60,327 bases of DNA from Chloroflexota bacterium (GTDB taxonomy: Bacteria; Chloroflexota; Dehalococcoidia; Dehalococcoidales; UBA2162). This document shows, piece by piece, positions 1 through 58,729 of this stretch (positions are counted from its first letter, which is position 1; each line of letters starts with the position of its first letter). The stretch lies in NCBI GenBank assembly GCA_043797985.1, contig JAZDPB010000174.1:1-60327 (forward strand). The letters run 5' to 3'. The notes beneath the pieces were generated by a model that was not told the DNA's origin, ran no database searches, and saw nothing but the letters and a program-made list of their open reading frames with translations. A program made the translations under genes and the position numbers.

Positions 1-825
<825 letters not shown>

Positions 826-891
826 ATTAAATTCTATTGCTTGAACCTTCCTCTCGCTATCCAATTGTTAAGGTGCTGAAAATGCATTACT

Positions 892-921
892 AAGATATCA
901 TAGACCAAGCCATATTGTCAA
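892..921 (-). promoter_or_regulatory. candidate sigma70-type promoter of the 16S gene
   Basis: Minus-sense TTGACA (916-921), 18-nt spacer, then TATCTT (892-897), about 70 nt upstream of the 16S 5' end. Confidence 0.3.
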
Positions 922-1041
922 GTGCTTCATATGTTTCCGTAGAAATCCGACAGTCTATCTTTTCCCCGAGTAAAGGTGGAGTTATGTTCAGTCTCATGTA
1001 GTGTCTATGGGTTCGTTTGCCAGATGGTTAAGGATTATTCC

Positions 1042-1335: not shown

Positions 1336-1411
1336 TTACGCACGTATAAATACTATTATAAATACTATATAGGATACCTCTTCTGGCTGATAGATGGTGT
1401 TAACTCAGATA

Positions 1412-1485
1412 CGCGCCTAGAGGGATTCGAACCCACGACCCCCGGTTCCGAAGACCGATGCTCTTGTCCGCTGAGCTATAGGCGC
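1412..1485 (-). tRNA. tRNA-Arg (anticodon TCG)
   Basis: The reverse complement folds as a cloverleaf: acceptor GCGCCTA/TAGGCGC, D arm GCTC..GAGC, anticodon stem TCGGT/ACCGG with loop CTTCGGA, T loop TTCGAAT. There is one U-U mismatch in the T stem. CCA is not encoded. Confidence 0.88.
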
Positions 1486-1666
1486 ATGAAGTTAAATTAA
1501 GGGTTACTCATTTTACATAATTTCAAATTGCTACTAAATGATTCTACTGGTTTATTATACTTTGATATAAAGGCTTCGTCAAAGCGGTTGGCAGAGAAAA
1601 AAGTATTTACTAGAAACGTTCATTGATGTATTATTAAAATAATGGCATTCTTAAAGAATAGCCTGA

Positions 1667-2855: not shown

Positions 2856-2933
2856 TGGGGTGAGTGGAGGGATTTGAACCCTCGATATCCAGGGCCACAA
2901 CCTGGCGCCTTAGTCCACTGGGCCACACTCACC
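2856..2933 (-). tRNA. tRNA-His (anticodon GTG)
   Basis: The reverse complement is GGTGAGTGTGGCCCAGTGGACTAAGGCGCCAGGTTGTGGCCCTGGATATCGAGGGTTCAAATCCCTCCACTCACCCCA. It has an encoded G-1 opposite C73, anticodon loop TTGTGGC, T loop TTCAAAT, and encoded CCA. Confidence 0.9.
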
Positions 2934-3062: not shown

Positions 3063-3240
3063 TTACCTCACCCCCTTAATCCCCCTCTCCTGAAAGGCGA
3101 GGGGGAAAATAGATAAAAAAGAAGGGGGCTCTAAGCCCCCTTCTTTTAAAATTACTTCCCCTTTCCCTGCCAGGGAAAGGGGATAGGGTCGACTATCTAG
3201 TCGGAAGACCATCGAGTGTCACCAATCTATCTTAGCTAGT
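3063..3240. repeat. array of GC-rich hairpin modules plus a 55-nt unit shared with 21418-21475
   Basis: Hairpins at 3081-3105 (CCCCCTCTCC..GGCGAGGGGG), 3121-3143 (GAAGGGGGCT..AGCCCCCTTC, flanked by A6 and T4) and 3157-3183 (TCCCCTTTCCCTG/CAGGGAAAGGGGA). 3183-3238 is the reverse complement of the unit at 21418-21475. Confidence 0.8.
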
Positions 3241-3367
3241 TCATAAGCTAATTATGTTTCCGGTGGGAGTCTGCATCTTGACAAGTAGCGAATGTAGCTA
3301 TATTCTCAAATTAGTAGAGGGGCTATCCTTTCACTCTTTACTTTGTTCTAAAAGGAGAATAATCAAA

Positions 3368-5233: not shown

Positions 5234-5530
5234 CTATTGTTGTTCTCTGACCCGGCGTAACTCCATTGTTACTAAGTTTGTGTGGTCCATACACTCTACA
5301 GTCATCACATCTGGGTTTCCCCATGCAGCGGGAAACCCGCCGCCGAACTGAAGCATAGCAATGTAGGGGTAGATATCGTGATAGAAGAAGCCACATAGGT
5401 TAGCGGTGTCATGGCAGCTTATTTCAAAAGTGTCACCGGCCTCATGTCCCCATGAGCAATTGCCCTTAACCGATTTTACTGTCGCTACTACTTTGTTGTC
5501 GGGAGAGGTTGCCCTTCTTGGCTTTGTCAT
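5234..5530 (-). CDS. small Cys-rich protein, TIGR04076-like
   Basis: 98 aa with CSWGHEAGDTF...C...LCGFFYHDIYPYIAMLQFGGGFPW-type pattern that I associate with the TIGR04076 family. It lies directly downstream of the AOR gene. Confidence 0.55.
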   Translation of the reverse strand: MTKPRRATSPDNKVVATVKSVKGNCSWGHEAGDTFEISCHDTANLCGFFYHDIYPYIAMLQFGGGFPAAWGNPDVMTVECMDHTNLVTMELRRVREQQ

Positions 5531-5548
5531 AGCCTTGTCCTCCGTATA

Positions 5549-7408
5549 TCAATATTCAATGCCTAGCTCTTCTACTTTTTCTGGAGTAGGTACGCCAGTT
5601 TTTGCATCCCAGCCCATTAAAGTATAATAGTATCTTTTCGCTGCTTCCAGTTGTTTACTATCGTAATGCTTCGTAGAGAGGACGCCGTTCCTCTTCGGTT
5701 GGAAGAAACGATTTGGTAGCTTGTCGTCGGCAGCAGTAAATCCTTCCCGAATGTTGAATAACCTTGCCATGGTTAAAGTCCTCTCTGCCACCTTCAACAT
5801 TTCGACCGCGCTAGTATTCCACCCGGTAACAGCAGCTAAGATATTGGTAACCTGTTCAGCGTCATAAGGTGTAAACAAACAGAGACCGAGGTCGTCTTGA
5901 GCAATACGAAACAGGTGACTTGCTCGAAACAGGGCTACCTTCTTTGGCCCAAGTTCGTCAGCAGAGAGAGGTTCAAGTATCCCGAGAAGTTTTACGGTCT
6001 CTAATCCCCGTCCTGGTGTGGAGAACATAGTATCATGGAGGTTGGCACAGTGGTCAGCTCCATGAGGGTTAACTTCGTAGCCCAGACCTAGAGCTGCTTT
6101 GACTCGCGGGTCGTGCATTGCTATTTCCAGCCCCTTAACATGCATGGCAAATTCCTGCGCTTTGTTGCCAATTCTTTTAACTGCGCGAGCCGTTCCCTCA
6201 GCCAGCAGGTCGCCAATACCTTCACGTTTGGCAATCAGTTCAATCATTTTGAGCATTGCTTCGGCATTGCCGAATTTGAGTTCGATGCCATTGGTGTCTT
6301 CCATATTTAGCAGGCCGTTCTCAAAACACTCCATGGCAAAACCAATGACAACCCCTGTTGAAATACTATCCAGGGAATAGGCGTTACAAAGTTCATTTCC
6401 TTTGGCGATTGCCTTGAGGTCGCCTATGCCACAGTTAGAGCCTATCGCTGCTAATGTCTCATACTCCGGGCCACCATAGTCGGGGTCTACGGAGTAAGGT
6501 TCATCAACCCTCACCACTTTTTTACAGCGGATTGAGCAAGCATAACAGGCTTCCATCCTCACCCTTATCGTGTCTCTTACTGCCTCAGCACTTATTTTTG
6601 ATACCTCAGGAAATTCACCATCCAGGAAATTACGGACCGGTACATTTCCGGTAGACATAAAAGCTCCCATTCCGGCTCCGGTGCCCAGTTCGTTGAATGA
6701 AGCCCATAGCGGTCGGTTGGCTAATAGCCACTGTCTGAATCCCTTCAGACGCTCAGGGTCAGCTACCTTCGGTCGTTTATGACCCCTGACACCAATAGCT
6801 TTGAGGTTCTTTGAACCCATTACTGCCCCCATTCCTCCTCTACCAGCAGCATCCTTCAGGTCATTCATTACGCAGGCGAAACGCACCAGATTTTCTCCGG
6901 CTGGACCGATGGCGGCTACTCTGATGAGGTTGTCTTCTTGCTCAGTTCTGATGGCTTGCTCGGTCTCCTTGGTCGTTTTTCCCCACAGATGACTGGCATC
7001 CTTTATGTACACTTCCCCGTCGTGAATCCAGAGGTAGACCGGTTTTTTAGCCTTGCCCTCAACGATAATGGTATCGTAGCCGGCGTGCTTGAGCTCGGCG
7101 CCCCAGTATCCGCCGGACTCTGCCTTACCGTAGCCGCCGGTTAGAGGTGATTTAGCACCAACGCAGTGACGGCCACTTCCCGGCAGGGGAACGCCTGTTA
7201 CCGGTCCTAGGGCAAAGATTAGTTTGTTCTCCGGGCTTAAGGGGTCAATCCCTTGCCGTAGTTCTTTAAGCAGAAAGTATGAAATAAAACCAGCACCGCC
7301 CAGGTACTTCCGGCAGAATAATTCGTCAGTTGTCTCGACAGAGGTGCTGTTTTTAGAAAGATTCACTCTTAAGATTTTGCCATTGTAACCGCCTACCTTT
7401 TCGGCCAT
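5549..7408 (-). CDS. aor: aldehyde:ferredoxin oxidoreductase (tungstopterin family)
   Basis: 619 aa. The N-terminal AOR_N-like region (GKILRVNLS...), the Cys cluster EACYACSIRCKK and the overall length match the AOR family. GAGGAGG lies before the ATG. Confidence 0.88.
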   Translation of the reverse strand: MAEKVGGYNGKILRVNLSKNSTSVETTDELFCRKYLGGAGFISYFLLKELRQGIDPLSPENKLIFALGPVTGVPLPGSGRHCVGAKSPLTGGYGKAESGGYWGAELKHAGYDTIIVEGKAKKPVYLWIHDGEVYIKDASHLWGKTTKETEQAIRTEQEDNLIRVAAIGPAGENLVRFACVMNDLKDAAGRGGMGAVMGSKNLKAIGVRGHKRPKVADPERLKGFRQWLLANRPLWASFNELGTGAGMGAFMSTGNVPVRNFLDGEFPEVSKISAEAVRDTIRVRMEACYACSIRCKKVVRVDEPYSVDPDYGGPEYETLAAIGSNCGIGDLKAIAKGNELCNAYSLDSISTGVVIGFAMECFENGLLNMEDTNGIELKFGNAEAMLKMIELIAKREGIGDLLAEGTARAVKRIGNKAQEFAMHVKGLEIAMHDPRVKAALGLGYEVNPHGADHCANLHDTMFSTPGRGLETVKLLGILEPLSADELGPKKVALFRASHLFRIAQDDLGLCLFTPYDAEQVTNILAAVTGWNTSAVEMLKVAERTLTMARLFNIREGFTAADDKLPNRFFQPKRNGVLSTKHYDSKQLEAAKRYYYTLMGWDAKTGVPTPEKVEELGIEY

Positions 7409-7579: not shown

Positions 7580-7935
7580 ACCCTATCCCCCGCCTGCCGA
7601 AGCCTCGTGCGGCCTGCTTGTGCTAAAGCTTCAGCGAAGGCAAGCGGGCAGGCCTTAATCCCCTTCTCCTTGTAGAGGTCTTGCCTCAAAAGTGGTTCGT
7701 TTATGTCATTGCGAACCCTCACGCTGCGCTCAGGGTAAACTCCGCGAAGAATTTATGATAAAACTCCTGAGAACGGATTCTTCGTCGTCTCGACTTTATC
7801 GGGACTCCTCAGAATGACTTTTGGAGCAATCCCCTCTTACTTACCTGATGTTCAGGGCGTCTAAGAGGGGCTTCGCCCCTCTTTTATTTCCTCCCCCTCT
7901 CCTAAAAGGAGAGGGGGTTAGGGGGTGAGGTCAAC
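7580..7935. repeat. composite intergenic repeat array including a ~150-bp MITE-like element (7680-7829)
   Basis: 7680-7694 CTTGCCTCAAAAGTG and 7816-7829 (reverse complement TTGCTCCAAAAGTC) form imperfect terminal inverted repeats. The right half of the interior is about 85 percent identical to 21241-21295. Further hairpins lie at 7861-7885 and 7893-7933 (CCCCCTCTCC..GGAGAGGGGG..GGGGGTGAGG). Confidence 0.75.
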
Positions 7936-9636: not shown

Positions 9637-10908
9637 ATGGACAAGACGATAGCGATAATAATGGCTGGTGGGGTAGGGGAGAGACTGCAACCCTTGACCA
9701 GAGAGAGGTCAAAGGCGGCAGTTCCTTTTGGTGGTAAATTCCGGCTCATTGATTTCACACTTAGTAATTGCATCAACTCAGGATGTCGCCACATTTTCGT
9801 TCTCACACAATACCGGTCAAGCTCGCTGAATAGACATATCCAGGATGGCTGGGGTATCTCGCTCTCAGGTTTAGGAGACTTCATCTATTGTGAACCAGCC
9901 CAGCAGAAGCTTGGTGATGATTGGTATCGTGGTACTGCCGATGCGGTACGGCAAAACCTTGACTTGCTCCGGGGAAGAGATGTTGAACATCTCCTCGTCC
10001 TCTCTGGTGACCACATCTACAAGATGAACTACCTGAGTATGGCGGAATATCACAAGGTAAAGAAAGCTGGCCTGACACTCTCCGCTATCAGGGTAAAAAA
10101 AGAAGAGGCGGCGGGAAAGCTTGGAGTGCTTGAGGTGGACAAAGACTATAGACTGGTTGGTTTCGAAGAGAAGCCGGCGCAGCCAAAGACGATTCCAGAT
10201 GCTCCAGACTATGCCTTGGCGTCAATGGGCGTTTATATCTTCAGAGTTGATGTTGTGATGGAGGCTTTGCGAGGAGAGGAAGAAGACTTCGGTAGACATA
10301 TCATTCCCAAAATGATAGGCAAGGGTTTTGAAATCTTCGTTTACGACTATGAGAAAGAGAACAAGATAGAAGAATTCGTGGTCGAAGTGAGGGAGGGTAA
10401 AAGAAACAAAGTTCTGGTTGATAGAACTCGTGATTCTTCGTATTGGAAGGACGTTGGCACTATCGATTCCTACTATGAAGCGAGTATGGACCTGGTAGGC
10501 GTTGACCCTGTTTTTAATCTCTACGGAGAGAGGTGGCCCTTCAGGACTTACCAGAGACCGCTGCCTCCAAGCAAGTGTGTTCTCGGGGGGAGAACCCTGG
10601 AGTCTATCGTGTCTGATGGTTGTATCGTTAGCGGTGGGACGGTGTTTGGTTCTATATTGTCCCCGGGCGTAGTTGTAGAAAGAGATGCCACGATTGAGAG
10701 GTCAATCGTATTTGATGATGTTATCATCGAGCCTTATGCCAGGATAAGACAAGCCATCATTGACAAGGAAACTAGAATCCAGACTGGAGCATCCATCGGC
10801 TATGACCTGGAGGCGGATAAGAAGAGAGGCTGTACAGTATCAGAGACCGGCATTGTAGTCGTTCCTAGAGGAGCTGACATAGGACGCTCTGACGTTGCAC
10901 TATTTTGA
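9637..10908 (+). CDS. glgC: glucose-1-phosphate adenylyltransferase
   Basis: 423 aa. N-terminal MAGGVGERLQPLTRERSKAAVPFGG nucleotidyl-transferase motif and a C-terminal left-handed beta-helix region. Confidence 0.88.
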   Translation: MDKTIAIIMAGGVGERLQPLTRERSKAAVPFGGKFRLIDFTLSNCINSGCRHIFVLTQYRSSSLNRHIQDGWGISLSGLGDFIYCEPAQQKLGDDWYRGTADAVRQNLDLLRGRDVEHLLVLSGDHIYKMNYLSMAEYHKVKKAGLTLSAIRVKKEEAAGKLGVLEVDKDYRLVGFEEKPAQPKTIPDAPDYALASMGVYIFRVDVVMEALRGEEEDFGRHIIPKMIGKGFEIFVYDYEKENKIEEFVVEVREGKRNKVLVDRTRDSSYWKDVGTIDSYYEASMDLVGVDPVFNLYGERWPFRTYQRPLPPSKCVLGGRTLESIVSDGCIVSGGTVFGSILSPGVVVERDATIERSIVFDDVIIEPYARIRQAIIDKETRIQTGASIGYDLEADKKRGCTVSETGIVVVPRGADIGRSDVALF

Positions 10909-11049
10909 TTCAAGTAACATTTATTTGCATTGCGCAAACAGTGCTCCTTTCTATTTCAGATTCCAGTAGTTCTCTTTTCCCTTCAATAGTGAAGTCTGTG
11001 TATCTCTTCGTATGCGAAAAACTGATAAGTCACCATTGTTTGGGGAGAT

Positions 11050-11250
11050 CGTTCGGTCTTAGTTGGTGGTGTCATTGCGAGCCATTCGTTTAGCGTCATT
11101 CTGAGAGTAACGAAGAATCTCATAATGCTCAGTTCTGATCCACGCAGTAACATCAGTCATGCAGTAATGAGATTGCCACGTCGTTCGCCTCAGGCGGACT
11201 CCTCGCAATGACAGTGGAATCAACCAGATGCAAACAGAACCGACGCTTAC
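11050..11250. repeat. interspersed repeat (GTCATTGCGAG ... CTCGCAATGAC type), inverted relative to the 2559-2717 and 30055-30275 copies
   Basis: 11-bp terminal inverted repeats GTCATTGCGAG (11071-11081) and CTCGCAATGAC (11202-11212). The internal module GTCATTCTGAG..GAAGAATC and the flanking GGAATCAACCAGATGCAAACAGAACC recur elsewhere. The track ORF 11059..11262 shares GSVCIWLIP with ORF 2502..2738, a translation artefact of the repeat. Confidence 0.75.
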
Positions 11251-11360
11251 ACGGGCTATCATTTAACTCACAAATGAAGGTATAATAGATTGGTTGGTGC
11301 TCGGTTTATAGCTGGCGAGCACGTAGCTAAAATCTTACGGCATGAGGTTATGGGGGTTTT

Positions 11361-12284
11361 ATGAATGAGGAATTTGTTCGCCGGGTGCGAGCAGTGGTTG
11401 ATAATATTCGTCAGGTAGTGGTAGCGAGCCCGGATGTTATTAGAATGAGTCTGCTGGGATTGCTATGCCAGGGGCATGTTCTTCTGGATGATTTTCCGGG
11501 TGTAGGTAAAACATTACTGGCAAAGACACTGGCGCAGTCATTGCAGGCTAACTTCAAGCGTATCCAGTTCACTCCAGACCTGCTGCCGAGTGATATTACC
11601 GGCTCGTCGATATATGACCAGACTGCTGGAGACTTTAAGTTTGTGCCTGGCCCTATCTTTGCCAATATAGTGCTGGCAGATGAGATTAATCGCTCCAGTC
11701 CGCGAACACAGTCCGCTCTGCTTGAGGCAATGGGTGAGGGATACATTACCTTCGATGGAATTACTCGCCCTCTACCCAGGCCTTTCTTCGTCATTGCGAC
11801 ACGAAACCTCGCTGAGGCGCATGGTATCTTCCCTCTACCTCAAAGCCAGCTGGACAGATTTTTGCTCTCTTTCGGGATTGGCTATCCGAAGCAGGAGGAA
11901 GAGGTGGAAATACTGGAACGACATGAACATGGGGGACTGAGTATTAGCCCGGTTCTCACCGCCAGTGACATTTCTACCATGCAAGACCAGGTATACCAGG
12001 TTGAAGTTGCTCGGCCGGTAAAAGAATATATTGCTAATCTTGTAGCTGAGACGAGGGCAAGTGCCGAAATAGCTATAGGCGTAAGCCCTCGCGGTACTGT
12101 TTTTCTACAGAGGGCTGCCCAGGCCAGGGCAGCCATGGAAGGAAGAGATTTCGCTACACCCGACGATGTTAAGGTGATAGCGCCAGCGGTACTCCGCCAC
12201 CGTATTCAAACCCGTTCCTCAGAGCCTGATGCATCCGCGAAATGCATCGAAGCTATTCTGAGCACGGTCCCGGTACCTTTATAG
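11361..12284 (+). CDS. MoxR-family AAA+ ATPase
   Basis: 307 aa. Walker A FPGVGKT, Walker B VLADEINR, typical AAA_3 length. Confidence 0.88.
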   Translation: MNEEFVRRVRAVVDNIRQVVVASPDVIRMSLLGLLCQGHVLLDDFPGVGKTLLAKTLAQSLQANFKRIQFTPDLLPSDITGSSIYDQTAGDFKFVPGPIFANIVLADEINRSSPRTQSALLEAMGEGYITFDGITRPLPRPFFVIATRNLAEAHGIFPLPQSQLDRFLLSFGIGYPKQEEEVEILERHEHGGLSISPVLTASDISTMQDQVYQVEVARPVKEYIANLVAETRASAEIAIGVSPRGTVFLQRAAQARAAMEGRDFATPDDVKVIAPAVLRHRIQTRSSEPDASAKCIEAILSTVPVPL

Positions 12285-17956: not shown

Positions 17957-18158
17957 AGCTTTGGGTAAAACGAGGTAGGGTCAATACCTGAAGTGGGCGT
18001 ATTGAAAAGCTAATCCTGTTTGTTGAAAGACCATGACGCAATTGCCGTTAGCACGATGCCAAGGACAGCCACGAGCAACACATCTTCAAGAACGCTCGTT
18101 GTTTGCCCCAGGATAGTCACACCAATATTGTAGCTGCCCTGTCCTCCAACCAGATACC

Positions 18159-18395
18159 CTATGACAATAGTTTGTCCAATCTAGCCTGGTCAAAACCGAC
18201 GACAATCTCGTTATCAATAATAATCACCGGTACAGCCATTTGCCCGGACTTTTGTATCATCTCTTTGGCTTTTTCCTTATCTGCAGCCACATTGTGTTCA
18301 ATATAAGAAATCCCTTTTCGCGAAAGATACTCTTTCGCCCGATGACACCAGGGTCAGGTGTTAGTGGAATAGATAACCACTTTCTTGTCAGTCAT
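18159..18395 (-). CDS. glutaredoxin-like protein (YruB/NrdH type) with in-frame TGA at the first Cys of CxxC; candidate selenoprotein
   Basis: My own translation: ATG 18393-18395 with GGAGG 7 nt upstream, reading MTDKKVVIYSTNT[TGA 18354-18356]PWCHRAKEYLSRKGISYIEHNVAADKEKAKEMIQKSGQMAVPVIIIDNEIVVGFDQARLDKLLS, stop TAG 18159-18161. The fold motifs (VPVIIID, VVGFD) match small glutaredoxin-like proteins. It is absent from the track because both halves are under 60 aa. Confidence 0.65.
18320..18338 (-). promoter_or_regulatory. SECIS-like hairpin downstream of the in-frame UGA
   Basis: mRNA GCGAAAG-AGUAU-CUUUCGC (7-bp perfect stem, 5-nt loop containing GU) begins 15 nt after the UGA. This is within the distance range described for bacterial SECIS elements. 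Confidence 0.45.
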
Positions 18396-18449
18396 TCTTT
18401 TGCCTCCAAAATCGAATATTGTGATAGGCTCTCATATTCTTATAACTTA

Positions 18450-18478
18450 ATCTTATATCTGCCTATGGCAGTCGTCAA
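18450..18478 (-). promoter_or_regulatory. candidate promoter with spacer palindrome upstream of the glutaredoxin-like gene
   Basis: Minus-sense TTGACG (18473-18478), 17-nt spacer containing the palindrome CTGCC-ATA-GGCAG (18459-18471), then TAAGAT (18450-18455). Confidence 0.3.
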
Positions 18479-18740
18479 GTTTAGTATACCCTTCCCTGCA
18501 GTTATTTAGAATGAAACAAAAGTCGAATACAGCCAACTGCCTTTGGTTTAAAGATGCTCCAAGTTGTATTGGACTTGAGAAATACTAGTTGAGGGAAAGG
18601 CTACCATTTGGGATGAATGACAAGTAACTATCTCTTGACTAAGCGTGGTTATGCAGAGCAAACAAACTAATTCTGCATCCTGGCACCAACAGATCGAGAA
18701 TCACTTTATTGACCGAGTGGGGTTGAGGATGTGAGTCGCA

Positions 18741-18866
18741 TTAGCTGTTAACCGTAAAGTATGGATAACTTTCCACAATAGCCACGGTAGGGGTGATAAA
18801 GTCGTTTTCCATAAGGGCTTTGAGTACCTGACTGACTATTAAGATTGGTTCTATTATATTTCTCAT
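18741..18866 (-). CDS. hypothetical 41-aa protein
   Basis: ATG 18864-18866 preceded by GGAGGA-AAACAA. It reads MRNIIEPILIVSQVLKALMENDFITPTVAIVESYPYFTVNS. No family recognised; it could be the remnant of a larger gene. Confidence 0.3.
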   Translation of the reverse strand: MRNIIEPILIVSQVLKALMENDFITPTVAIVESYPYFTVNS

Positions 18867-19061: not shown

Positions 19062-19742
19062 CTACTCCGATTTCGCCAGGAAGTATCCAACGCCGGTTTT
19101 GGTAAGGATAAGCTTCGGTTGGCTAGGATTGGCCTCTATCTTTTCTCTCAAGCGTCGGATGTGAACTTTTAAGCTATCCGCTGCCCCTGAGTAGTCGGCG
19201 CCCCAAACTGCCTCGGCGAGGCTTGAGTGAGTGACCACATGGCCAGCATTTTTCATTAGGTGATTAAGGATATGACTTTCAGTGATGGTGAGTGCGATTT
19301 CTTTGCCACTATAATTGAGTTGCCCAGTTTTAGCATCAAGGCGCAACGGTCCATAAGTCACCAGTTCCTCTTCTACGGGGCTTTGCCGGCGAATTAGGGA
19401 CTTTACGCGTGCCAAGAGTTCTAACTGACGGAAGGGTTTAGTCATGTAATCGTCCGCTCCCCACTCCAGTCCCTTGACGATATCGGCTTCATCCGCTCTT
19501 ACTGTCAGAACAATGGTGGGTACTCGGGAAAAGAGGCGAATCTGGTGTAGCACCTCAAAACCGCTAATATCAGGCAATCCCAGGTCAAGGATGACAATAT
19601 CAGGGGCCTCGCTTTCAACTAATTCAACTCCCTTTTCGCCAAGTCGCGTAGAAACAACTGTAGCTTCAGGCCAGCGTATTTGAAAGGCGAGGGAAATAGC
19701 ATCTACAATTTCTCGGTCATCCTCGATAATAAGAACCTTCAT
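19062..19742 (-). CDS. OmpR-family response regulator (canonical receiver)
   Basis: 226 aa. Receiver with IIEDD, ILDLGLPD and TKPF motifs, plus a winged-helix Trans_reg_C domain (TKTGVGYFL). Confidence 0.9.
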   Translation of the reverse strand: MKVLIIEDDREIVDAISLAFQIRWPEATVVSTRLGEKGVELVESEAPDIVILDLGLPDISGFEVLHQIRLFSRVPTIVLTVRADEADIVKGLEWGADDYMTKPFRQLELLARVKSLIRRQSPVEEELVTYGPLRLDAKTGQLNYSGKEIALTITESHILNHLMKNAGHVVTHSSLAEAVWGADYSGAADSLKVHIRRLREKIEANPSQPKLILTKTGVGYFLAKSE

Positions 19743-20973
19743 CAGTTGTCTCCTGTTTCAAACCTTCATCCCTCTGACTATCAGTAGCTAAAGGTATAGA
19801 GAAGCTAAAGGTTGAGCCTTTTCCCATCTGGCTTTCCACCCATATTTTACCACCTTGAAGCTCCACCAGGTTTTTACATAATGCCAGCCCTAATCCTAGT
19901 CCACTGAGGTGCTCTCTATCTCTCATTTGCCGGTGGTAGGGCTGGAACAGCCGTTGCTGCTCGTCTTCAGGAATACCGGGGCCGGTATCATGAACTTCTA
20001 CAACTAAGGTAGCACCCTTTGTTTTTGCTTTCAGAGTGATGGTACCTCCCTCAGGGGTGAATTTTGAGGCGTTGATTAGTAGGTTGAGTATTACCTGGCG
20101 TAGGCGTTCTTCGTCAGCCCAGACCAAGGGTAGCGAAGGAGGTAAAGATAATATCAGGGATAGTCCGTCCCTTGAAATTAGTACTGCCATATTCTCGGCT
20201 GCACTGTGAAGTAATTTTAATGCGTCGACCAGCTTCGGATTTATTTGGAGCATACCAATCTCGACTCTTGCTAAGTCGAGAAGTTCATCAATCCTCTTAT
20301 TAAGATTAGAGGCGCCACTATGAATGTTTCTGGCGACGCTTAGCCAGGGTTCCTCACGAAGTTCAGTAGCAAGTAACTCGCTTGACGCAAGCACCGGTGT
20401 TAGTGGAGTTTTTAACTCATGCACCAATGCTCGTGTGAATTCTATTCTTCTTTGTGCTTCCGCTTCTAGCTCTTGGCGGAGCTTTCTTTCCTGTTCGTAA
20501 AGCTCCTGTAATTTCTCCTGTGCTCGCTCAAGTTCGGTGATATCCATGGAGTGTCCCAGAACGGCTCGTTTCCCCTGGTATTGTGTTGAGACAACCCCCT
20601 CTAATACCCATCTGGTCTGCCCGTCTTCGTTAATAACCCGATATTTATAGGGTGAAGAACGCTCTCCCTTTAACATTTTTATGGCGTTTTCTCTGACCAT
20701 GACTCTATCTTCGGGGAAAACGCGCTGTAGCGGGTCAGTACCTAAAAGCTTGCCTTCTCTACCACCAAGCATTCTGCGGAATTCGTCATTAACGAATTTA
20801 AACTTGCCGTCTTGACTTATGAAGAGGCCAATGGGTGAATTGATGCGGAAGATGTGAAGTAATTCTCCCTCGTGGCTCTGCTGGTTCTTCGATGCTTCTA
20901 GCTCGACAACTCGCTGGCGCAATTCGTTCAGTTCGTTTAAGAGTTGCTTTTTTGTCTTATGCTCTTCTTTCAT
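19717..20973 (-). CDS. cytoplasmic PAS-domain sensor histidine kinase
   Basis: 418 aa. N-terminal coiled coil, PAS region, H-box HELKTPLTP, N box NLLINASKF, G boxes DTGPGI and GLGLGLALCK. No TM segment. It overlaps the regulator gene by 26 nt. Confidence 0.88.
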   Translation of the reverse strand: MKEEHKTKKQLLNELNELRQRVVELEASKNQQSHEGELLHIFRINSPIGLFISQDGKFKFVNDEFRRMLGGREGKLLGTDPLQRVFPEDRVMVRENAIKMLKGERSSPYKYRVINEDGQTRWVLEGVVSTQYQGKRAVLGHSMDITELERAQEKLQELYEQERKLRQELEAEAQRRIEFTRALVHELKTPLTPVLASSELLATELREEPWLSVARNIHSGASNLNKRIDELLDLARVEIGMLQINPKLVDALKLLHSAAENMAVLISRDGLSLILSLPPSLPLVWADEERLRQVILNLLINASKFTPEGGTITLKAKTKGATLVVEVHDTGPGIPEDEQQRLFQPYHRQMRDREHLSGLGLGLALCKNLVELQGGKIWVESQMGKGSTFSFSIPLATDSQRDEGLKQETTDEGSYYRG

Positions 20974-21155
20974 ATTAGTTCATTGATTCAAAAGGCAGAA
21001 GTTGCGGACTTAATAGTATTCACTGAACACAGACTTATACCGAAGGTTGGTCTTGATTATGGTAAGTATTAATTCTACTCCAGTAGGCTAATGGCGTCAA
21101 ATGAAATCACCATTAGGATTATGTTTTGGTGCAACAAAAGATTCAAAAAACCAGG

Positions 21156-21316
21156 AACTGAACTGGCTTTGCCTCAAAAGTGCTATCCCTCATGTCACCC
21201 TGAGCGTAGCGAAGGGTCTCGGGGTAGGGCTTTGCCACCCCACTCCTAGATTCTTCGTCATCCCGATTGATCGGGATTCCTCAGAATGACATTTGAGGCA
21301 AGACCAACTGAACTGG
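21156..21316. mobile_element. MITE-like 136-bp element with imperfect terminal inverted repeats and flanking 11-bp direct repeats
   Basis: Left end CTTTGCCTCAAAAGTG (21167-21182). Right end reverse complement CTTGCCTCAAATGTC (to 21302). AACTGAACTGG occurs at 21156-21166 and again at 21306-21316. The interior is related to 7680-7829. No transposase is present. Confidence 0.6.
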
Positions 21317-21417
21317 ACAGGGGTATGTCCAGTCAAGAAGCAAGGACCGTAAGGCTATGTTCTTCTCTCTCGACCAGTCTAATGGGTGATGCGGGCGTAA
21401 GCTACTGAGCCAGTTCA

Positions 21418-21520
21418 GATAGATTGGTGACACTTGCTGGTCTTCCTACTAGATGGTTTGACCCTATCCCCTTTACCCCCCCCTCTCCTGAAAGGAGAGG
21501 GGGGGTAACGGGGGTGAGGC
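21418..21520. repeat. 55-nt repeat unit plus GC-rich hairpin
   Basis: 21418-21475 is about 85 percent identical to the reverse complement of 3183-3238. The hairpin CCCCCCCTCTCC-tgaaa-GGAGAGGGGGGG is followed by GGGGGTGAGG, as at 7893-7933. Confidence 0.75.
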
Positions 21521-21664
21521 AAAGACAGCGGACAGATTTAAGAGGTTGATTAATAATTGTGTCACTATTCATATGAACTAGTACATCTACTTGACAGCTC
21601 TTTGAATATCAGTTTATAATATTTTGGCTTTTAAAAATATTAATCATAGAGGGATGGTATTAAG

Positions 21665-21784
21665 ATGGCAAATCAGATAGGAAAGAGATATATCTGTACT
21701 AATTGCGGTGCTGAGTTCATTTGTACCAAAGGTGCGAATGGTACGATTCAGTGCTGCGGCAAACCAATGGAACTAAAGAAGTAA
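21665..21784 (+). CDS. desulforedoxin-like mini-protein (39 aa)
   Basis: My translation is MANQIGKRYICTNCGAEFICTKGANGTIQCCGKPMELKK. The Cys pattern CxxC-x15-CC and the length match desulforedoxin / Dx-domain proteins. GAGGGA lies upstream. It is too short for the ORF track. Confidence 0.6.
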   Translation: MANQIGKRYICTNCGAEFICTKGANGTIQCCGKPMELKK

Positions 21785-21812: not shown

Positions 21813-21956
21813 GTGGCAAGTCAGTTAGGTAAGAGATATCGCTGTAGCGTCTGCGGGACTGAAGTGTTGTGTGTTAAGGCGGGGACGGGTGTTGTTATAT
21901 GCTGCGGTAAGCAAATGGAAGTCAAGGAAACAAAACCGCTGGCGTCCTCGGATTAA
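21813..21956 (+). CDS. desulforedoxin-like mini-protein, paralogue (47 aa, GTG start)
   Basis: AGGAGG lies 10 nt before GTG 21813. It reads MASQLGKRYRCSVCGTEVLCVKAGTGVVICCGKQMEVKETKPLASSD, with the same CxxC-x15-CC pattern. The 100-aa antisense track ORF 21825..22127 is probably spurious. Confidence 0.55.
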   Translation: MASQLGKRYRCSVCGTEVLCVKAGTGVVICCGKQMEVKETKPLASSD

Positions 21957-42497: not shown

Positions 42498-43493
42498 CTA
42501 GAGCTGCCAGAAACTGATTAGCCGCTCAAAATCAATCAGTCCGCTTTCGCCGATATTCACGACTTCAATTCCCGCCTCAACTGCTGCCGCCAGCGGGTTC
42601 AAACCGCCCATTAGCACCATGCCAACGCGATTTAGACCTACGGCAATTTGACAAACTGGTTCGCTGGTATTGCCCAGGACCAAAACGCCTTTAATGCCGG
42701 CTTCTTTGAGTAGAGCGATTCTCTCATCGGCAATGGCTCTCGATGCCGCCGGTATCTCGCGGAAATTAGCGAGTATTTTACCGTTACCGGTTTTCACTGC
42801 GTCGGTGACACTGGTCATCCTGGCGCGGATATACTGCTCAGAAGGGTCGAGGGATGTGCCTGAGTAATTGATTAAAGCTACGAACCGTCTTGGTTTAGAG
42901 TCTCTAAGCTCCAGCACTCCACCAAACTTGGATTCTATTGGAATGCCGGCTTTAAGAAGCACTCCGTTTATAGTCACGCTACAAACAGTAGCCAGGCCGA
43001 TTTTCCCGCTCGGTATCACCACCGAACCAAGTTTTTCACCTTCAGCGGCTGTAGCTACCAGTTCACTGACACAAAATCCCGCTTTGAATGTGCTCGCCAT
43101 CGCTGATAATACCCTTTTTAATTTATCAGCATCAATGAGCGAAGTATTTATTGGAAGCTGGCCAGTGCGTTTTTCCGGGTCAAAGGTGGTGTGGAACGCC
43201 AAAAGCTCAAGTTTCTCCTCTATGAAACCGACTTGCTCCGGTGCCAGAGCCATCTTGAGCTCCTCAAGACCTTGTGGGGTGAGCATCCTGCCGTCACGGC
43301 CCAGAGGCTGGGTATAGCCGCGCTCGTCAGTTATTCGCAGGTGGTATCTAACCGCGCGTTCACTTAAAAAAATCCCGTGTCGTTCAAGTTCACGAGCAAT
43401 AGCGATGGAGCCTAATGGCTCCGACGATTCGCTCAGGACTTTTAGAATGGATATCAGCTTCTGCTCAGTATTACGGCCTTCATTCGATATCAT
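42498..43493 (-). CDS. nrpR: NrpR-type nitrogen regulator (winged helix + NrpR/DUF128 domain), copy 1
   Basis: 331 aa. N-terminal wHTH (LISILKVLSESSEPLGSIAIARELERHGIFLSERAVRYHL) followed by one NrpR domain. A paralogue of the same length lies at 52116..53111. Confidence 0.72.
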   Translation of the reverse strand: MISNEGRNTEQKLISILKVLSESSEPLGSIAIARELERHGIFLSERAVRYHLRITDERGYTQPLGRDGRMLTPQGLEELKMALAPEQVGFIEEKLELLAFHTTFDPEKRTGQLPINTSLIDADKLKRVLSAMASTFKAGFCVSELVATAAEGEKLGSVVIPSGKIGLATVCSVTINGVLLKAGIPIESKFGGVLELRDSKPRRFVALINYSGTSLDPSEQYIRARMTSVTDAVKTGNGKILANFREIPAASRAIADERIALLKEAGIKGVLVLGNTSEPVCQIAVGLNRVGMVLMGGLNPLAAAVEAGIEVVNIGESGLIDFERLISFWQL

Positions 43494-52115: not shown

Positions 52116-53111
52116 TCAACTCCAAGAGTGTCCCAATCTTTCAAAGTCGATGGTACCGCTCAAAGGGTGATTTATCACTTCTATCCCTGCTTCCGCAATA
52201 GCCGCCACCATATTCAAGCCATCGGCAAGTACCATGCCAACTCTGTTCGCTGCAACTGAAAGCTGACAGACGGTCTCGCCTATTCCTCCAAGAATAATCA
52301 ATCCCGTCATGCCTGCTACCTTTAACTCTTGGATAATTGCCTCTGCGTTTGTTCGACCGATGGCTGGTATTTCACAAAAGCTAGCCAATATATTACCATT
52401 ACCCTCTCTGGCCACATTACCGACTGAGGTCATTTTACTAGCGATGAATACCTTAGATGGGTCTAGTGAGCAACCGGCATATTCAATAAGGTCAACAAAG
52501 CGCAAAGCTTCATGGTTCCGAATCTGGATTATACCTCCGAATCTGGAATCCACTGGTATTCCGGCCCTTATCAAAGCCCCACAGGCTACGATGTGGGATA
52601 CTGTAGCTAAGCCGACCTTGCCTGTGGGCACAGTTACTTCCCCCAAATTTTCTCCTTCAAGAGCTACGGCTGTTAAGTCACTAATTCCAAGTGCAGAAAG
52701 GGAAATGCCTTTCACGGCTTCTATGGCTTGACTGAGTTTATCACTGGAGAACAATGACACATTGATGGGTACCTTTCCCATCCGTTTCTCAGGGTCGAAA
52801 GAGCTTTGGTAAGCTAGCGTTTCAATCTTGCTAGCCACCAAGCCTACCCGGTCGCTAACTAAGGCACTACCGAGTTCTTCGAGTCCGAATTTGGTAATCG
52901 ACCTGCCATCTCTCGTGCCAACAGTATGGGTAAGACCTCGTTCGTCCATGAACTTGAGGTGGTATCTCACTACTCTCTCACCTAAATCAATGCCTAGGTC
53001 ACAAAGTCGCCGAGCCAGAACTCTACCACCGAGAGGCCGTGGTGAATCGCTAAGTACCTTAAGAATCGCTATCGTCTTTCTCTCTATATCATTAGTTTGT
53101 TGACCTATCAT
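52116..53111 (-). CDS. nrpR: NrpR-type nitrogen regulator, copy 2
   Basis: 331 aa, collinear with copy 1 (roughly half the residues identical by eye, for example FDPEKR..PIN.SL, GLATV, AGIP..S.FGG, VGMVL, AGIEV). Confidence 0.72.
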   Translation of the reverse strand: MIGQQTNDIERKTIAILKVLSDSPRPLGGRVLARRLCDLGIDLGERVVRYHLKFMDERGLTHTVGTRDGRSITKFGLEELGSALVSDRVGLVASKIETLAYQSSFDPEKRMGKVPINVSLFSSDKLSQAIEAVKGISLSALGISDLTAVALEGENLGEVTVPTGKVGLATVSHIVACGALIRAGIPVDSRFGGIIQIRNHEALRFVDLIEYAGCSLDPSKVFIASKMTSVGNVAREGNGNILASFCEIPAIGRTNAEAIIQELKVAGMTGLIILGGIGETVCQLSVAANRVGMVLADGLNMVAAIAEAGIEVINHPLSGTIDFERLGHSWS

Positions 53112-56182: not shown

Positions 56183-57376
56183 TTACATCGCTTCCCCGGC
56201 GGTTATTGCTTCCTTATTAGTTATAGATTGCGCCTGGAATACCGTTTTTAATCTACCTATCACTGGTTCGCCACCTGCTGGAATCCACGTTCTGTCCAGT
56301 TCAGGACATATCAGGCGGATAGCAGACTCTTCGGACGAAAGATATATCATGTTACTCTTTTCTCCGACGGTCAGTGGTCGTAATCTGATACGGTCGGTCA
56401 GTCCAATCATTTCCCCGTGATGAGCAACTATTATCGTGAACGGTCCGTTCAAGAGTAAGCTACCATATACCTGACGTAGAGCTTGCATTAGCTTTTGCTC
56501 TTCTTGTGGCATGCGCTCAATGTCGTTCCAGAAAGGCGGTGCCAGTATTTTGGCCACTATGTCCAGTGGCAGGTTGTGCTTACGCATGAGCAAGTCGATA
56601 GCATAAGCTACTACCTCGGTGTCGGTTTGCATTGTGCAATGGTAGCCGAATTGTTCTAAGTAACGACGATTTATTCCGTAGGATGAAATCTCACCGTTGT
56701 GGACCACAGTCCAGTCCAGCATGCAGAACGGGTGAGCTCCACCCCACCACCCGGGTGTATTGGTGGGAAAACGCCCATGTGCCGTCCATAGGTAACCTTC
56801 GTACTCCTCCAAGCGGAAGTAATCAGCTACATCCTCGGGGTAGCCTACACCCTTGAACACTGCCATATTCTTACCGCTAGAAAAGACAAAGCTATCGCCC
56901 AACTGTGTATTTATCTCCATTACCTTGCTTACAACATAATCATCTTCGGATTGCTTCTTGAGTTGTTGCTGTTCTATCTCAAGAAAGTAGCGCCATACTG
57001 CCGGGGGATTTGTCACATTTGATGTCGGTCGGGTAGGTACTTCTTCCTGGTACATCAGGTGAAAATTTGCCCGTAGAAATGCTTCTGTTTCTTGCTGTCC
57101 ACTCTGGCTAAGATACATCAGGTGAAAGGCGTATAAGTCAGCATATTCGGGGTATAGGCCATAGATGGCAAATCCACCACCCAGCCCATTGCCACGGTCA
57201 TGCATATTAGCAATAGCCTTGATGACACCTTCTCCAGAAAACCTCTCGCCTGAGGTATCCATAGCTCCGAATATGGAGCAGGCGTCAATTACCTTGTCAT
57301 CTTGGTTCGGGTTATTTACTTGTCTCAGGTTTTTCACTATAGCTCCTCCTAAAATATGAGTGCTACTCGCCGACAA
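56183..57376 (-). CDS. class II (Ntn) glutamine amidotransferase domain protein (GltB N-terminal domain)
   Basis: 397-aa ORF. AGGAGG-agctata-GTG suggests the real start is at 57337. The catalytic Cys sits in [10 protein letters not shown], 19 residues after that start, so a propeptide is implied. [10 protein letters not shown] and HNGEISSY motifs fit GATase_2. Confidence 0.82.
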
Positions 57377-58710
57377 GCATCTCCTCGGGCACTTCTACGG
57401 AAGTTACCAGGGAAGTTGATTTTGATGTTGGTAATGCTAATTGCGGTCGCCAGATTTCTTCAGGGAGAGATGCCAGGCCAAAATTATCATCAACCAGAGA
57501 CTGCTTGAAGCTGTCGACATTTATTCTGTCTTTCATGAGATTGTAGATAATGCCTGACTTCTCGATATCGCCACTAAAGACCAAGCCTGTTATCAGTCCG
57601 TCTTTTAAGACCATCTTCTTATAGAGATGGTCGTGTTTGGTGGTGATTACCTCGAAACTATCATCAGGTGGGATTGCCATGCCAGCCGAGACAATATTCA
57701 TCCCGAAATATTTCATGGAGTTTATTGCCGTTCCCCCCCCGATATTCAGCTGGAATGCCGGACATATTTAAACCTGCAATCCTTCCTCCCATGTAGGCGT
57801 TAGGCCATACTGGAGCAAGCCGATTCTCTCCATAGACGAAATCGTAAGCCTCAGCGGCATCACCACAGGCATAAACATCATTTATAGATGTAGCCATATG
57901 ACGGTCGACCACTATGCCGCGGTTCGTCCTTATCTGGGTGTCAGCTACAAGCTCAGTGCGTGGCTTGACGCCGATAGCTACAACCACCATCTCGCATGGT
58001 ATCGGTTGTCCATTATCCAGGTTGACACCAGTGGCTTCACCAGGCAAATAGCTGCCAATTTTCACCACCGTACGTCCGGTTATTATCTCAACGCCAGCCT
58101 GTGTCAGAGCCTTCTCCTCCAAAGCTGATGCTTCTTCATCGAGAATAGTATTCAGAATCCGTTCCTTCATCTCAACGATGGTAACCTCAACTCCTCGCTT
58201 CACCAACGCTTCAGTAACACTTATACCGATGAGGCCACCACCAATGACAATAGCCCTGACCTTTCTTCCGTAGTGGTTCAGGAGTTCGTCGATTGTCTTG
58301 GCATCGTCAAGCTTAGTAAAAGTGAAAACTCCTTCTAGCCCGATACCCTCTATTTTGGGAACGATGGGTGAGCCGCCGGTGGCAAACAGTAATTTCTGCC
58401 AGGTTAGCGTTCGCCCGCTATTCAGATTAATGCTACGGTTATTGAAGTTAACCTGCGCTACCTCTTCATTTAGGAGGACACGGATGTTGTTCTTATCATA
58501 GAAATCAGGCAAACGGAATAGCATCCTCTCCAGTGGGCACTTATTAGCTAGATACTCAGAGATAAGCGGTCTTGAGTAGGCAGGGTAAGGCTCATCGGAA
58601 ATTATGGTGATGGTCCCTGCCTTGTCTGTCTCACGGATAGCTTCAGCAGCGCCAATACCTCCGGCGGAATTCCCGATAATCAAATACTTTGTTTTCTCTG
58701 TCTTTGCCAT
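57363..58710 (-). CDS. FAD/NAD(P)-dependent pyridine nucleotide-disulfide-type oxidoreductase (FNOR/NADH-oxidase-like), frameshifted at a G8 run
   Basis: ORFs 57664..58710 and 57363..57716 are two halves of one protein. Removing one C from CCCCCCCC (57733-57740) gives ...IPAEYRGGTAINSMKYFGMNIV.... The motifs are IIGNSAGGIGAAEA and IGGGLIGISVTEA. Confidence 0.8.
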
Positions 58711-58729
58711 TTATTCCTACCTAATCCGG

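Follow-up and report, generated by a model that had tools for sequence, protein, structure and literature searches.

Glutaredoxin selenoproteins carrying a U-x-x-C motif (U, selenocysteine or Sec) were described in the Sargasso Sea survey of 2005 (PMC1088965), and further examples, together with selenocysteine insertion sequence (SECIS) elements located inside the gene, were reported for Geobacter, Alkaliphilus and Moorella (PMC1794560). The Sec-containing glutaredoxin of Clostridium/Alkaliphilus oremlandii is cited as experimentally characterised in a 2026 review (PMC13188914). Close to these stand the YruB-type redoxins, exemplified by Clostridium pasteurianum Cp9, which is found with Cp34 (NADH-dependent and thioredoxin reductase (TrxR)-like) and Cp20 (a peroxiredoxin), as summarised in PMC3720550. 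The Cp9 type is defined by a C-P-[YW]-C type site and an N-terminal [IV]-x-[ILV]-[YF]-[ST] motif, and BC3987, a thioredoxin-reductase-dependent redoxin, is grouped with it (PMC3720550). Here we describe a glutaredoxin-like gene with an in-frame TGA at 18395-18159 (minus strand) of a stretch of Chloroflexota DNA (contig JAZDPB010000174.1, assembly GCA_043797985.1; Dehalococcoidales). This stretch, referred to as the window, is the complete 60,327-bp contig, with a partial 16S gene at its end. We consider it very probable that the locus is a functional gene in which the TGA is decoded as selenocysteine. As glutaredoxin selenoproteins with a UxxC motif have been known since 2005, the gene is a correction to annotation and not new biology.

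The gene and the elements associated with it are the following.

18159..18395, minus strand: coding sequence of a glutaredoxin-like (YruB/Cp9-type) predicted selenoprotein, 78 residues (translation and homology, Pfam, TIGR02196)
18403..18407, minus strand: Shine-Dalgarno sequence GGAGG, 7-nt spacer to the ATG at 18395 (sequence)
18354..18356, minus strand: in-frame UGA, very probably read as selenocysteine, first position of a U-P-W-C redox motif (aligned with the Cys of homologues)
18320..18338, minus strand: bacterial SECIS hairpin within the ORF, GCGAAAGA-GUA-UCUUUCGC (fold and comparative conservation)
18450..18478, minus strand: candidate sigma-70-like promoter TTGACG-17-TAAGAT, 9/12, approximately 55 nt upstream of the ATG (consensus match only)

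The open reading frame (ORF) starts with the ATG at 18395-18393 and reads MTDKKVVIYSTNT, followed by TGA as codon 14, which would place Sec at residue 14, and then by PWCHRAKEYL...LDKLLS and a TAG stop at 18161-18159. The part of the protein after the TGA, in frame up to the TAG, is PWCHRAKEYLSRKGISYIEHNVAADKEKAKEMIQKSGQMAVPVIIIDNEIVVGFDQARLDKLLS. An earlier note on this DNA, made from its letters and an ORF list, had read the same ATG, the GGAGG with its 7-nt spacer and the in-frame TGA, and these, like the hairpin described below, were found where it had placed them. It had also remarked that the gene was missed by the ORF list, which indeed shows just a 43-aa fragment at this position, and the omission extends to public annotation: NCBI has no protein deposited for this gene in the source metagenome-assembled genome (MAG). 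The NCBI accessions run from MarC (MFH0769557.1) through a 41-aa hypothetical protein (MFH0769558.1, 18741-18866) to the response regulator (MFH0769559.1); the single accession between MarC and the regulator thus belongs to the 41-aa ORF, which leaves the glutaredoxin-like gene without a deposited protein. Six sigma-70-like sites were seen in the region against 2.7 expected, making the promoter evidence weak, and no intrinsic terminator was found 3' of the gene.

Orthologues were collected from GTDB species-representative genomes, using the 64 residues downstream of the TGA as the only query in order to avoid bias, and the codon directly upstream of each match was read in all 80 loci obtained. 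Loci from other genomes carry labels such as L003 or L018 below; 28 of them together with the window gene make up the TGA forms (n = 29). The earlier note had named, as a check on its proposal, a conserved TGA/Cys column as opposed to random stop positions. The column holds: at the first-Cys position, the 39 closest loci (59-82% identity) have TGA in 28 cases and TGT/TGC in 11. Cys codons are found in 41/41 of the more distant loci (Patescibacteria, Omnitrophota and DPANN archaea), such that TGT/TGC occupies the column in 52/80 loci overall. No stop was seen in the 80 loci at any position other than this column. The 28 TGA-form loci come from 27 species-level MAGs, all labelled Chloroflexota, Chloroflexia or Dehalococcoid-. 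A separate protein database search with the glutaredoxin-like sequence returned 617 homologues, the top 120 of which are full length and 76-83% identical. These 120 have T-C-P-W/Y-C at the position of T-TGA-P-W-C in the window, and the alignment therefore agrees with the placement of the TGA at the first Cys of C-P-x-C by the earlier note. Across the TGA forms, the ratio of nonsynonymous to synonymous differences (pN/pS) amounts to 0.31 before the TGA and 0.27 after it, at a near-saturated pS of 0.72-0.81. Purifying selection thus acts on either side of the TGA, and the whole frame is kept as one protein. In a neighbour-joining tree of these short proteins the Cys forms are scattered among the Sec forms, at a resolution too poor to count switches. 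Two of the TGA-form loci (L002 and L017) are copies within one MAG.

The hairpin begins 15 nt past the UGA, and the distance from the UGA to the apical loop, which is opened by G-U, is 23 nt. This distance lies inside the spacing allowed by the bacterial SECIS (bSECIS) model. RNAfold predicts an 8-bp stem with a GUA loop; the 7 bp and AGUAU loop drawn in the earlier note describe the same element. The hairpin is present at a constant position and with almost invariant sequence in 29/29 TGA forms. In the TGA forms, third-position entropy averages 0.19 over its six codons (GCG AAA/AAG GAG TAT CTT TCG), compared with 1.34 ± 0.20 (minimum 0.88) for six-codon windows elsewhere in the gene and 1.45 for the hairpin codons in same-clade Cys forms, while pS in the hairpin codons is 0.13 versus 0.72-0.81. 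Five of the eight pairs never vary and one varies from A-U to G-U only (7 sequences); a compensatory C-G to U-A change occurs at one pair (L018 and L034), and the outermost pair fails to form in 8 sequences. Overall, pairing is found in 96.6% of cells, a share that drops to 32-63% on sliding of the 3' strand. The TGA forms make 7.7 of the 8 pairs, with a mean local minimum free energy of -9.1 kcal/mol, in contrast to a mean of 4.0 pairs (range 2-6) and -2.8 kcal/mol for the Cys forms. The 15-nt hairpin core is unique in the window, although with 2 mismatches allowed 20/100 shuffles yield at least one match. Across 1.2 Mb of orthologue loci, the core GAARGAGTATCTTTC occurs only behind the TGAs of the TGA forms and once in a paralogue in L015 (SPT-U-VYC, with the core behind its TGA); none of the Cys-form loci contains it. 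It is thus on comparison with orthologues, and not by single-sequence fold, that the hairpin far exceeds chance. That the hairpin tracks the codon state is predicted by a SECIS function, and by neither a pseudogene nor a sequencing error.

Like the SECIS of E. coli fdhF, the hairpin follows the UGA at a short distance within the ORF and has an apical G-U, and homologues of SelA, SelB and SelD are encoded in relatives; it differs in its stem sequence, in its 3-nt (or 5-nt) loop and in that no bulged U is evident. L015 carries two Sec-containing glutaredoxin paralogues, T-U-P-W-C and T-U-V-Y-C (799-963, minus strand, and 9998-10189, plus strand), which are 45% identical and both have the hairpin core GAAAGA-GUA-UCUUUC at equal spacing. 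Two Cys forms retain traces of the element: L007 (~9998-10045) has a nearly intact copy and L003 (~9998-10045) a partly intact one, with 6/8 pairs. This suggests recent Sec-to-Cys conversions. With Sec forms, Cys forms and Cys forms bearing hairpin relics in one clade, these loci offer a convenient natural series for the study of Sec/Cys exchange.

For family assignment the protein was scored with Cys substituted for U, in which form it matches Pfam Glutaredoxin (PF00462) over residues 6-65 (E = 1e-20, 74.2 bits vs a gathering score of 22.9) and TIGR02196 (GlrX_YruB) with 101.4 bits vs a cut-off of 88.55, residues 5-77 aligning to profile positions 1-73 of 74. NrdH profiles remain under their cut-offs (TIGR02194, 51.5 vs 85.75; PRK10329, 27.1 vs 131). 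Of the YruB/NrdH-type assignment given in the earlier note, the YruB half consequently stands while the NrdH half falls. The site also differs from that of NrdH-redoxin, a small glutaredoxin-fold protein reduced by thioredoxin reductase: the fold is alike, but the window protein has a CPWC-type site and not C-[VMI]-Q-C. The bacterial Grx3 profile falls short as well (70 bits vs a cut-off of 90), whereas the UXX-star profile NF041212 is passed marginally (68.6 vs 66). UXX-star proteins (NF041212, NF041114) share a glutaredoxin-like fold and are selenoproteins, but their Sec lies three residues before the C-terminal stop; the window protein ends in ...LDKLLS-TAG, with its Sec at residue 14. Features of the Cp9 type are recognisable: a length of ~75-80 residues, the V-V-I-Y-S motif, a C/U-P-W-C site of the C-P-[YW]-C type, the cis-Pro and G-F. 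The nearest solved structures are small glutaredoxins, with 7c10 at E = 3e-19, and also BC3987.

With the known glutaredoxin selenoproteins, the window gene shares the PF00462 fold, Sec in place of the first Cys of an N-terminal CxxC, Cys homologues as the majority, and an intragenic SECIS that directly follows the UGA and has a small loop containing G. In contrast to them it falls in the YruB/Cp9 branch and not in the Grx3-like one, and is closer to 7c10 (3e-19) than to the C. oremlandii glutaredoxin structures 4tr0 and 4tr1 (E = 4e-10 and 1e-8). A further difference is the host, a Dehalococcoidales-related member of the Chloroflexota. No report of a glutaredoxin selenoprotein in Chloroflexota was found in the literature searched, though a database of 57,630 entries compiled from GTDB genomes (PMC13326102) may well contain it.

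Selenocysteine machinery is found beside the glutaredoxin gene in several of the relatives. Among TGA forms, L018 encodes SelB near the gene (9780-11642; TIGR00475, 389 bits vs a cut-off of 242), and L011 encodes SelA (TIGR00474, 495 bits vs 268) and the N-terminus of SelB (24-2074). The Cys forms L020 (6085-9629) and L022 (3383-6003) have selD-selA-selB near the gene, and the SelD of both is itself Sec-encoded, with GAG-TGA-ASKI at the position of E. coli Cys17. The apical loops of the hairpins of these selD genes and of the glutaredoxin hairpin have no sequence in common beyond G/U in the loop. In total, sel genes lie within 10 kb of the glutaredoxin gene in 4/39 relatives, against approximately 0.4 expected by chance in a back-of-envelope estimate. 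This closeness may simply reflect clade synteny of the glutaredoxin gene, a P-type ATPase gene and the sel cluster; the link, loose as it is, could alternatively hint at a role in selenium handling besides oxidative-stress defence. The literature is in agreement and documents Dehalococcoidia as Sec users: Dehalogenimonas has selC, selA, selB and a Sec-containing SelD (PMC4918011), while Dehalococcoidia MAGs rank with the known bacteria richest in selenoproteins (PMC13326102).

A second recurrent neighbour is a TrxR-like flavoprotein gene of ~304 aa with a CAIC/CAVC motif, which in 13/39 relatives, Sec and Cys forms alike, follows on the same strand at a distance of 20-245 nt. It most resembles AhpF (C-terminal half) and thioredoxin reductase, with scores below the equivalog cut-off in both cases. 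Such an operon partner sets these loci apart from the known glutaredoxin selenoproteins and suggests glutathione independence. It resembles the Cp34-Cp9-Cp20 system, given that a TrxR-like gene of low relative molecular mass adjoins the redoxin gene. The differences are Sec in place of Cys, a gene order of redoxin followed by reductase instead of cp34-cp9-cp20, the lack of an adjacent peroxiredoxin in the loci examined, and a window gene that stands alone without a TrxR-like neighbour. Genes of the rubrerythrin family and flavodiiron and ferritin-like genes are often found upstream in the relatives, a convergent Ca-type P-type ATPase gene lies downstream in 23/39 loci, and NifS-like genes are also recurrent neighbours in these 39 loci. 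No ribonucleotide reductase genes (nrdIEF) occur near the glutaredoxin gene.

Several results weigh against a functional Sec-decoded gene, the first being the chief source of doubt. The window is devoid of tRNA-Sec and of homologues of E. coli SelA, SelB and SelD, and a screen for TGA-interrupted genes yielded no convincing other selenoprotein gene in its 60 kb. The hairpin on its own is not energetically exceptional (fold z = -0.74). No Rfam family, SECIS models included, was matched at E <= 10 in 18100-18500, nor any Rfam SECIS at gathering score in the window; bacterial SECIS elements being diverse, we do not count this against function. The hairpin varies so little that covariation is thin, amounting to one compensatory pair. 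Compared with a sister genome (GCA_041643395.1, ~96% identical to the window over 19 kb), the assembly of the window has at least one frameshift, and its accuracy at single bases cannot be taken for granted. Finally, tblastn detected no TrxR-like partner in the window, and no peroxiredoxin-like recurrent neighbour was present within 4 kb in the 39 loci, so the redox partners have to be inferred.

The absence of Sec genes, tRNA-Sec and a second selenoprotein gene from the window would suit a recently stranded relic, that is, an intact gene in a source genome that has lost its Sec machinery, with the TGA terminating translation after 13 residues. Frequent Sec/Cys switching in the clade, where Cys forms are scattered and some carry hairpin relics, is in line with such a history. 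However, the window shows no flaw in the ORF, the ribosome-binding site or the hairpin, a 60-kb window would be expected to miss a system of 3-4 genes by chance, and the machinery is present in the closest relatives; we regard a relic as very unlikely. Even less probable is a pseudogene that arose when an ordinary Cys-glutaredoxin gene acquired a nonsense mutation. The missing NCBI protein and the apparent frameshift in another window gene could be taken to favour it, but the identical TGA codon position recurs in 28 other loci at 60-82% protein identity, the downstream frame is under purifying selection, and a dedicated hairpin goes with TGA and never with Cys. The TGA column, the hairpin and the selection data effectively refute this explanation, and support the reading of the earlier note that the locus encodes a Sec-decoded redox protein and not a pseudogene.

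That the true codon is TGC or TGT, misread through a sequencing or assembly error, is scarcely credible. The frameshift relative to the sister genome could be taken in favour of such an error, but the error would need to strike the single base matching the state of 28 orthologues, and the window has the full TGA-associated codon set GCG AAA GAG TAT CTT TCG, which is not conserved in the Cys forms. Although some uncultured lineages reassign UGA, decoding of another kind (genome-wide reassignment to Gly/Trp, or near-cognate read-through giving Cys/Trp) can be given almost no weight, as TGA is the normal stop of 16/51 genes in the window, which rules out a reassigned code, the Patescibacteria homologues all have Cys codons at this position, and the strict hairpin at SECIS spacing together with SelA, SelB and Sec-SelD beside the gene in relatives points to SelB-dependent decoding.

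Taking the gene as a functional Sec-decoded one, we infer Sec insertion in the source genome, SelB binding, the reductase and the acceptors as follows. By the established bacterial pathway, the ribosome would reach the UGA at codon 14 of the mRNA, where the hairpin GCGAAAGA-GUA-UCUUUCGC would bind SelB carrying Sec-tRNA(Sec), and Sec would be inserted in place of termination. The product would be a small dithiol-type (selenol/thiol) electron carrier cycling between a reduced form and a selenenylsulfide. Recharge would most likely be provided by a TrxR-like flavoprotein of low relative molecular mass, and the electrons would go on to targets that detoxify peroxide or oxygen, or to other disulfide targets, the host being an anaerobic bacterium of the Dehalococcoidales-related Chloroflexota. 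The carrier role, the TrxR-like recharge and a part in peroxide/oxygen defence are proposed by analogy with Cp34-Cp9-Cp20 and from gene neighbourhood. Such a protein would give anaerobic Dehalococcoidales-like Chloroflexota a further, Sec-dependent thiol-redox carrier for coping with oxidative stress and would imply selenium dependence of these organisms, though it opens no new kind of mechanism.

A bolder proposal, which we put forward tentatively and think is rather less probable than its negation, is that the TGA forms constitute a distinct clade of YruB/Cp9-type selenoredoxins coupled to TrxR and not to glutathione, derived from one ancient Sec acquisition and followed by repeated Sec-to-Cys reversions. 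A single ancient acquisition is proposed because all TGA forms share one near-invariant SECIS. The clade may span Dehalococcoidales-related Chloroflexota (28/39 of the closest species-level loci) and has not been singled out in the literature searched; its reversions may leave fossil hairpins, as in L007 and L003.

For annotation the consequences are more direct. The glutaredoxin-like gene is a genuine protein-coding gene absent from the public annotation of the source MAG, and its counterparts are probably missing from that of the other genomes with TGA-form loci too. Standard gene callers systematically lose selenoproteins. With its TGA/Cys column, the synonymous constraint on its hairpin and the Cys forms as an internal control, the locus makes a clean example for correction. 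The frameshift noted above lies at 57363-58713 (minus strand), where a Pyr_redox_2/Rubredoxin_C gene (NADH oxidase/CoA-disulfide-reductase-like) is split into ORFs of 348 and 117 aa; its counterpart in GCA_041643395.1 is intact, with 448 aa (L081, 969-2315). Either the gene has truly become a pseudogene, or the assembly contains an indel error here.

The immediate surroundings of the gene in the window contain the following features.

19717-20973, minus strand: PAS sensor histidine kinase (Pfam, NCBI names)
19062-19742, minus strand: OmpR-type response regulator (Pfam, NCBI names)
21665-21784, plus strand: desulforedoxin-like gene 1, 39 aa, CxxC...CC (Desulfoferrod_N, 23.2 bits vs 23; desulfoferrodoxin in NCBI)
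21813-21956, plus strand: desulforedoxin-like gene 2, 47 aa, CxxC...CC (Desulfoferrod_N, 31.0 bits vs 23)

The kinase/regulator pair lies upstream of the glutaredoxin gene on the same strand, with a 666-nt gap, and the tandem desulforedoxin-like genes are 3.3 kb away on the opposite strand. The earlier note had described this same context, and both desulforedoxin-like ORFs pass Desulfoferrod_N as it would suggest. The window gene stands alone, convergent with MarC on one side and flanked by the 41-aa ORF on the other. No synteny of MarC, the FAD oxidoreductase, the response regulator/histidine kinase, the desulforedoxins or FolE with the glutaredoxin gene was seen in relatives, and the local context thus tells little about function. 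The redox-stress setting that the earlier note had drawn from these neighbours is plausible, but is better backed by the TrxR-like, rubrerythrin, flavodiiron and ferritin-like neighbours in relatives than by the window itself. The 41-aa ORF (18741-18866, minus strand; V1932_08390), located between the response regulator and the glutaredoxin gene, is preceded by AAGGAGG, a strong ribosome-binding site; Pfam gave no match for it, and it is the sole member of its 90%-identity cluster in the protein collection.

Two further read-through candidates in the window were rejected. A second in-frame TGA at 18701-18703 (minus strand), flagged by a read-through scan, showed neither a coherent ORF nor homology. 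The TGA of an aldehyde:ferredoxin oxidoreductase (AOR) gene at 5549-7408 (minus strand) is followed by 104 open codons, but this stretch is a separate gene with its own ATG. It is a TIGR04076-family gene (5252-5548, minus strand; 99 aa, 52.9 bits vs 33) that follows in frame directly after the AOR TGA.

Dispersed short intergenic repeats occur in the window at 3075-3250, 7795-7917, 11189-11223 and 21267-21503. They include three copies of a palindromic hairpin, CCCCCTCTCC-TGAAAGG-AGAGGGGG, and a 58-nt inverted pair (3192-3249 with 21400-21457). The repeats look like repetitive extragenic palindromes (REP) or miniature inverted-repeat transposable elements (MITE), and account for the odd spurious peptides read from the 850-nt non-coding gap (20974-21660). 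A 47-nt direct repeat (1447-1493 and 2805-2851, 91% identical) copies the 5' half of tRNA-Arg (1411-1486, minus strand), its second copy adjoining tRNA-His (2856-2932, minus strand). The two copies bracket ~1.3 kb with an internally repetitive ORF (repeats at 1800-2136), and the arrangement could stem from a small insertion, or a duplication, at a tRNA gene. Lastly, two paralogous NrpR-like proteins of 331 aa with WHD_RNase_R and NRD1_2 domains (42498-43493 and 52116-53111, both minus strand) bracket a nitrogen-assimilation cluster comprising glnA, P-II, amtB, glutamate synthase subunits, carAB and NAD synthase.

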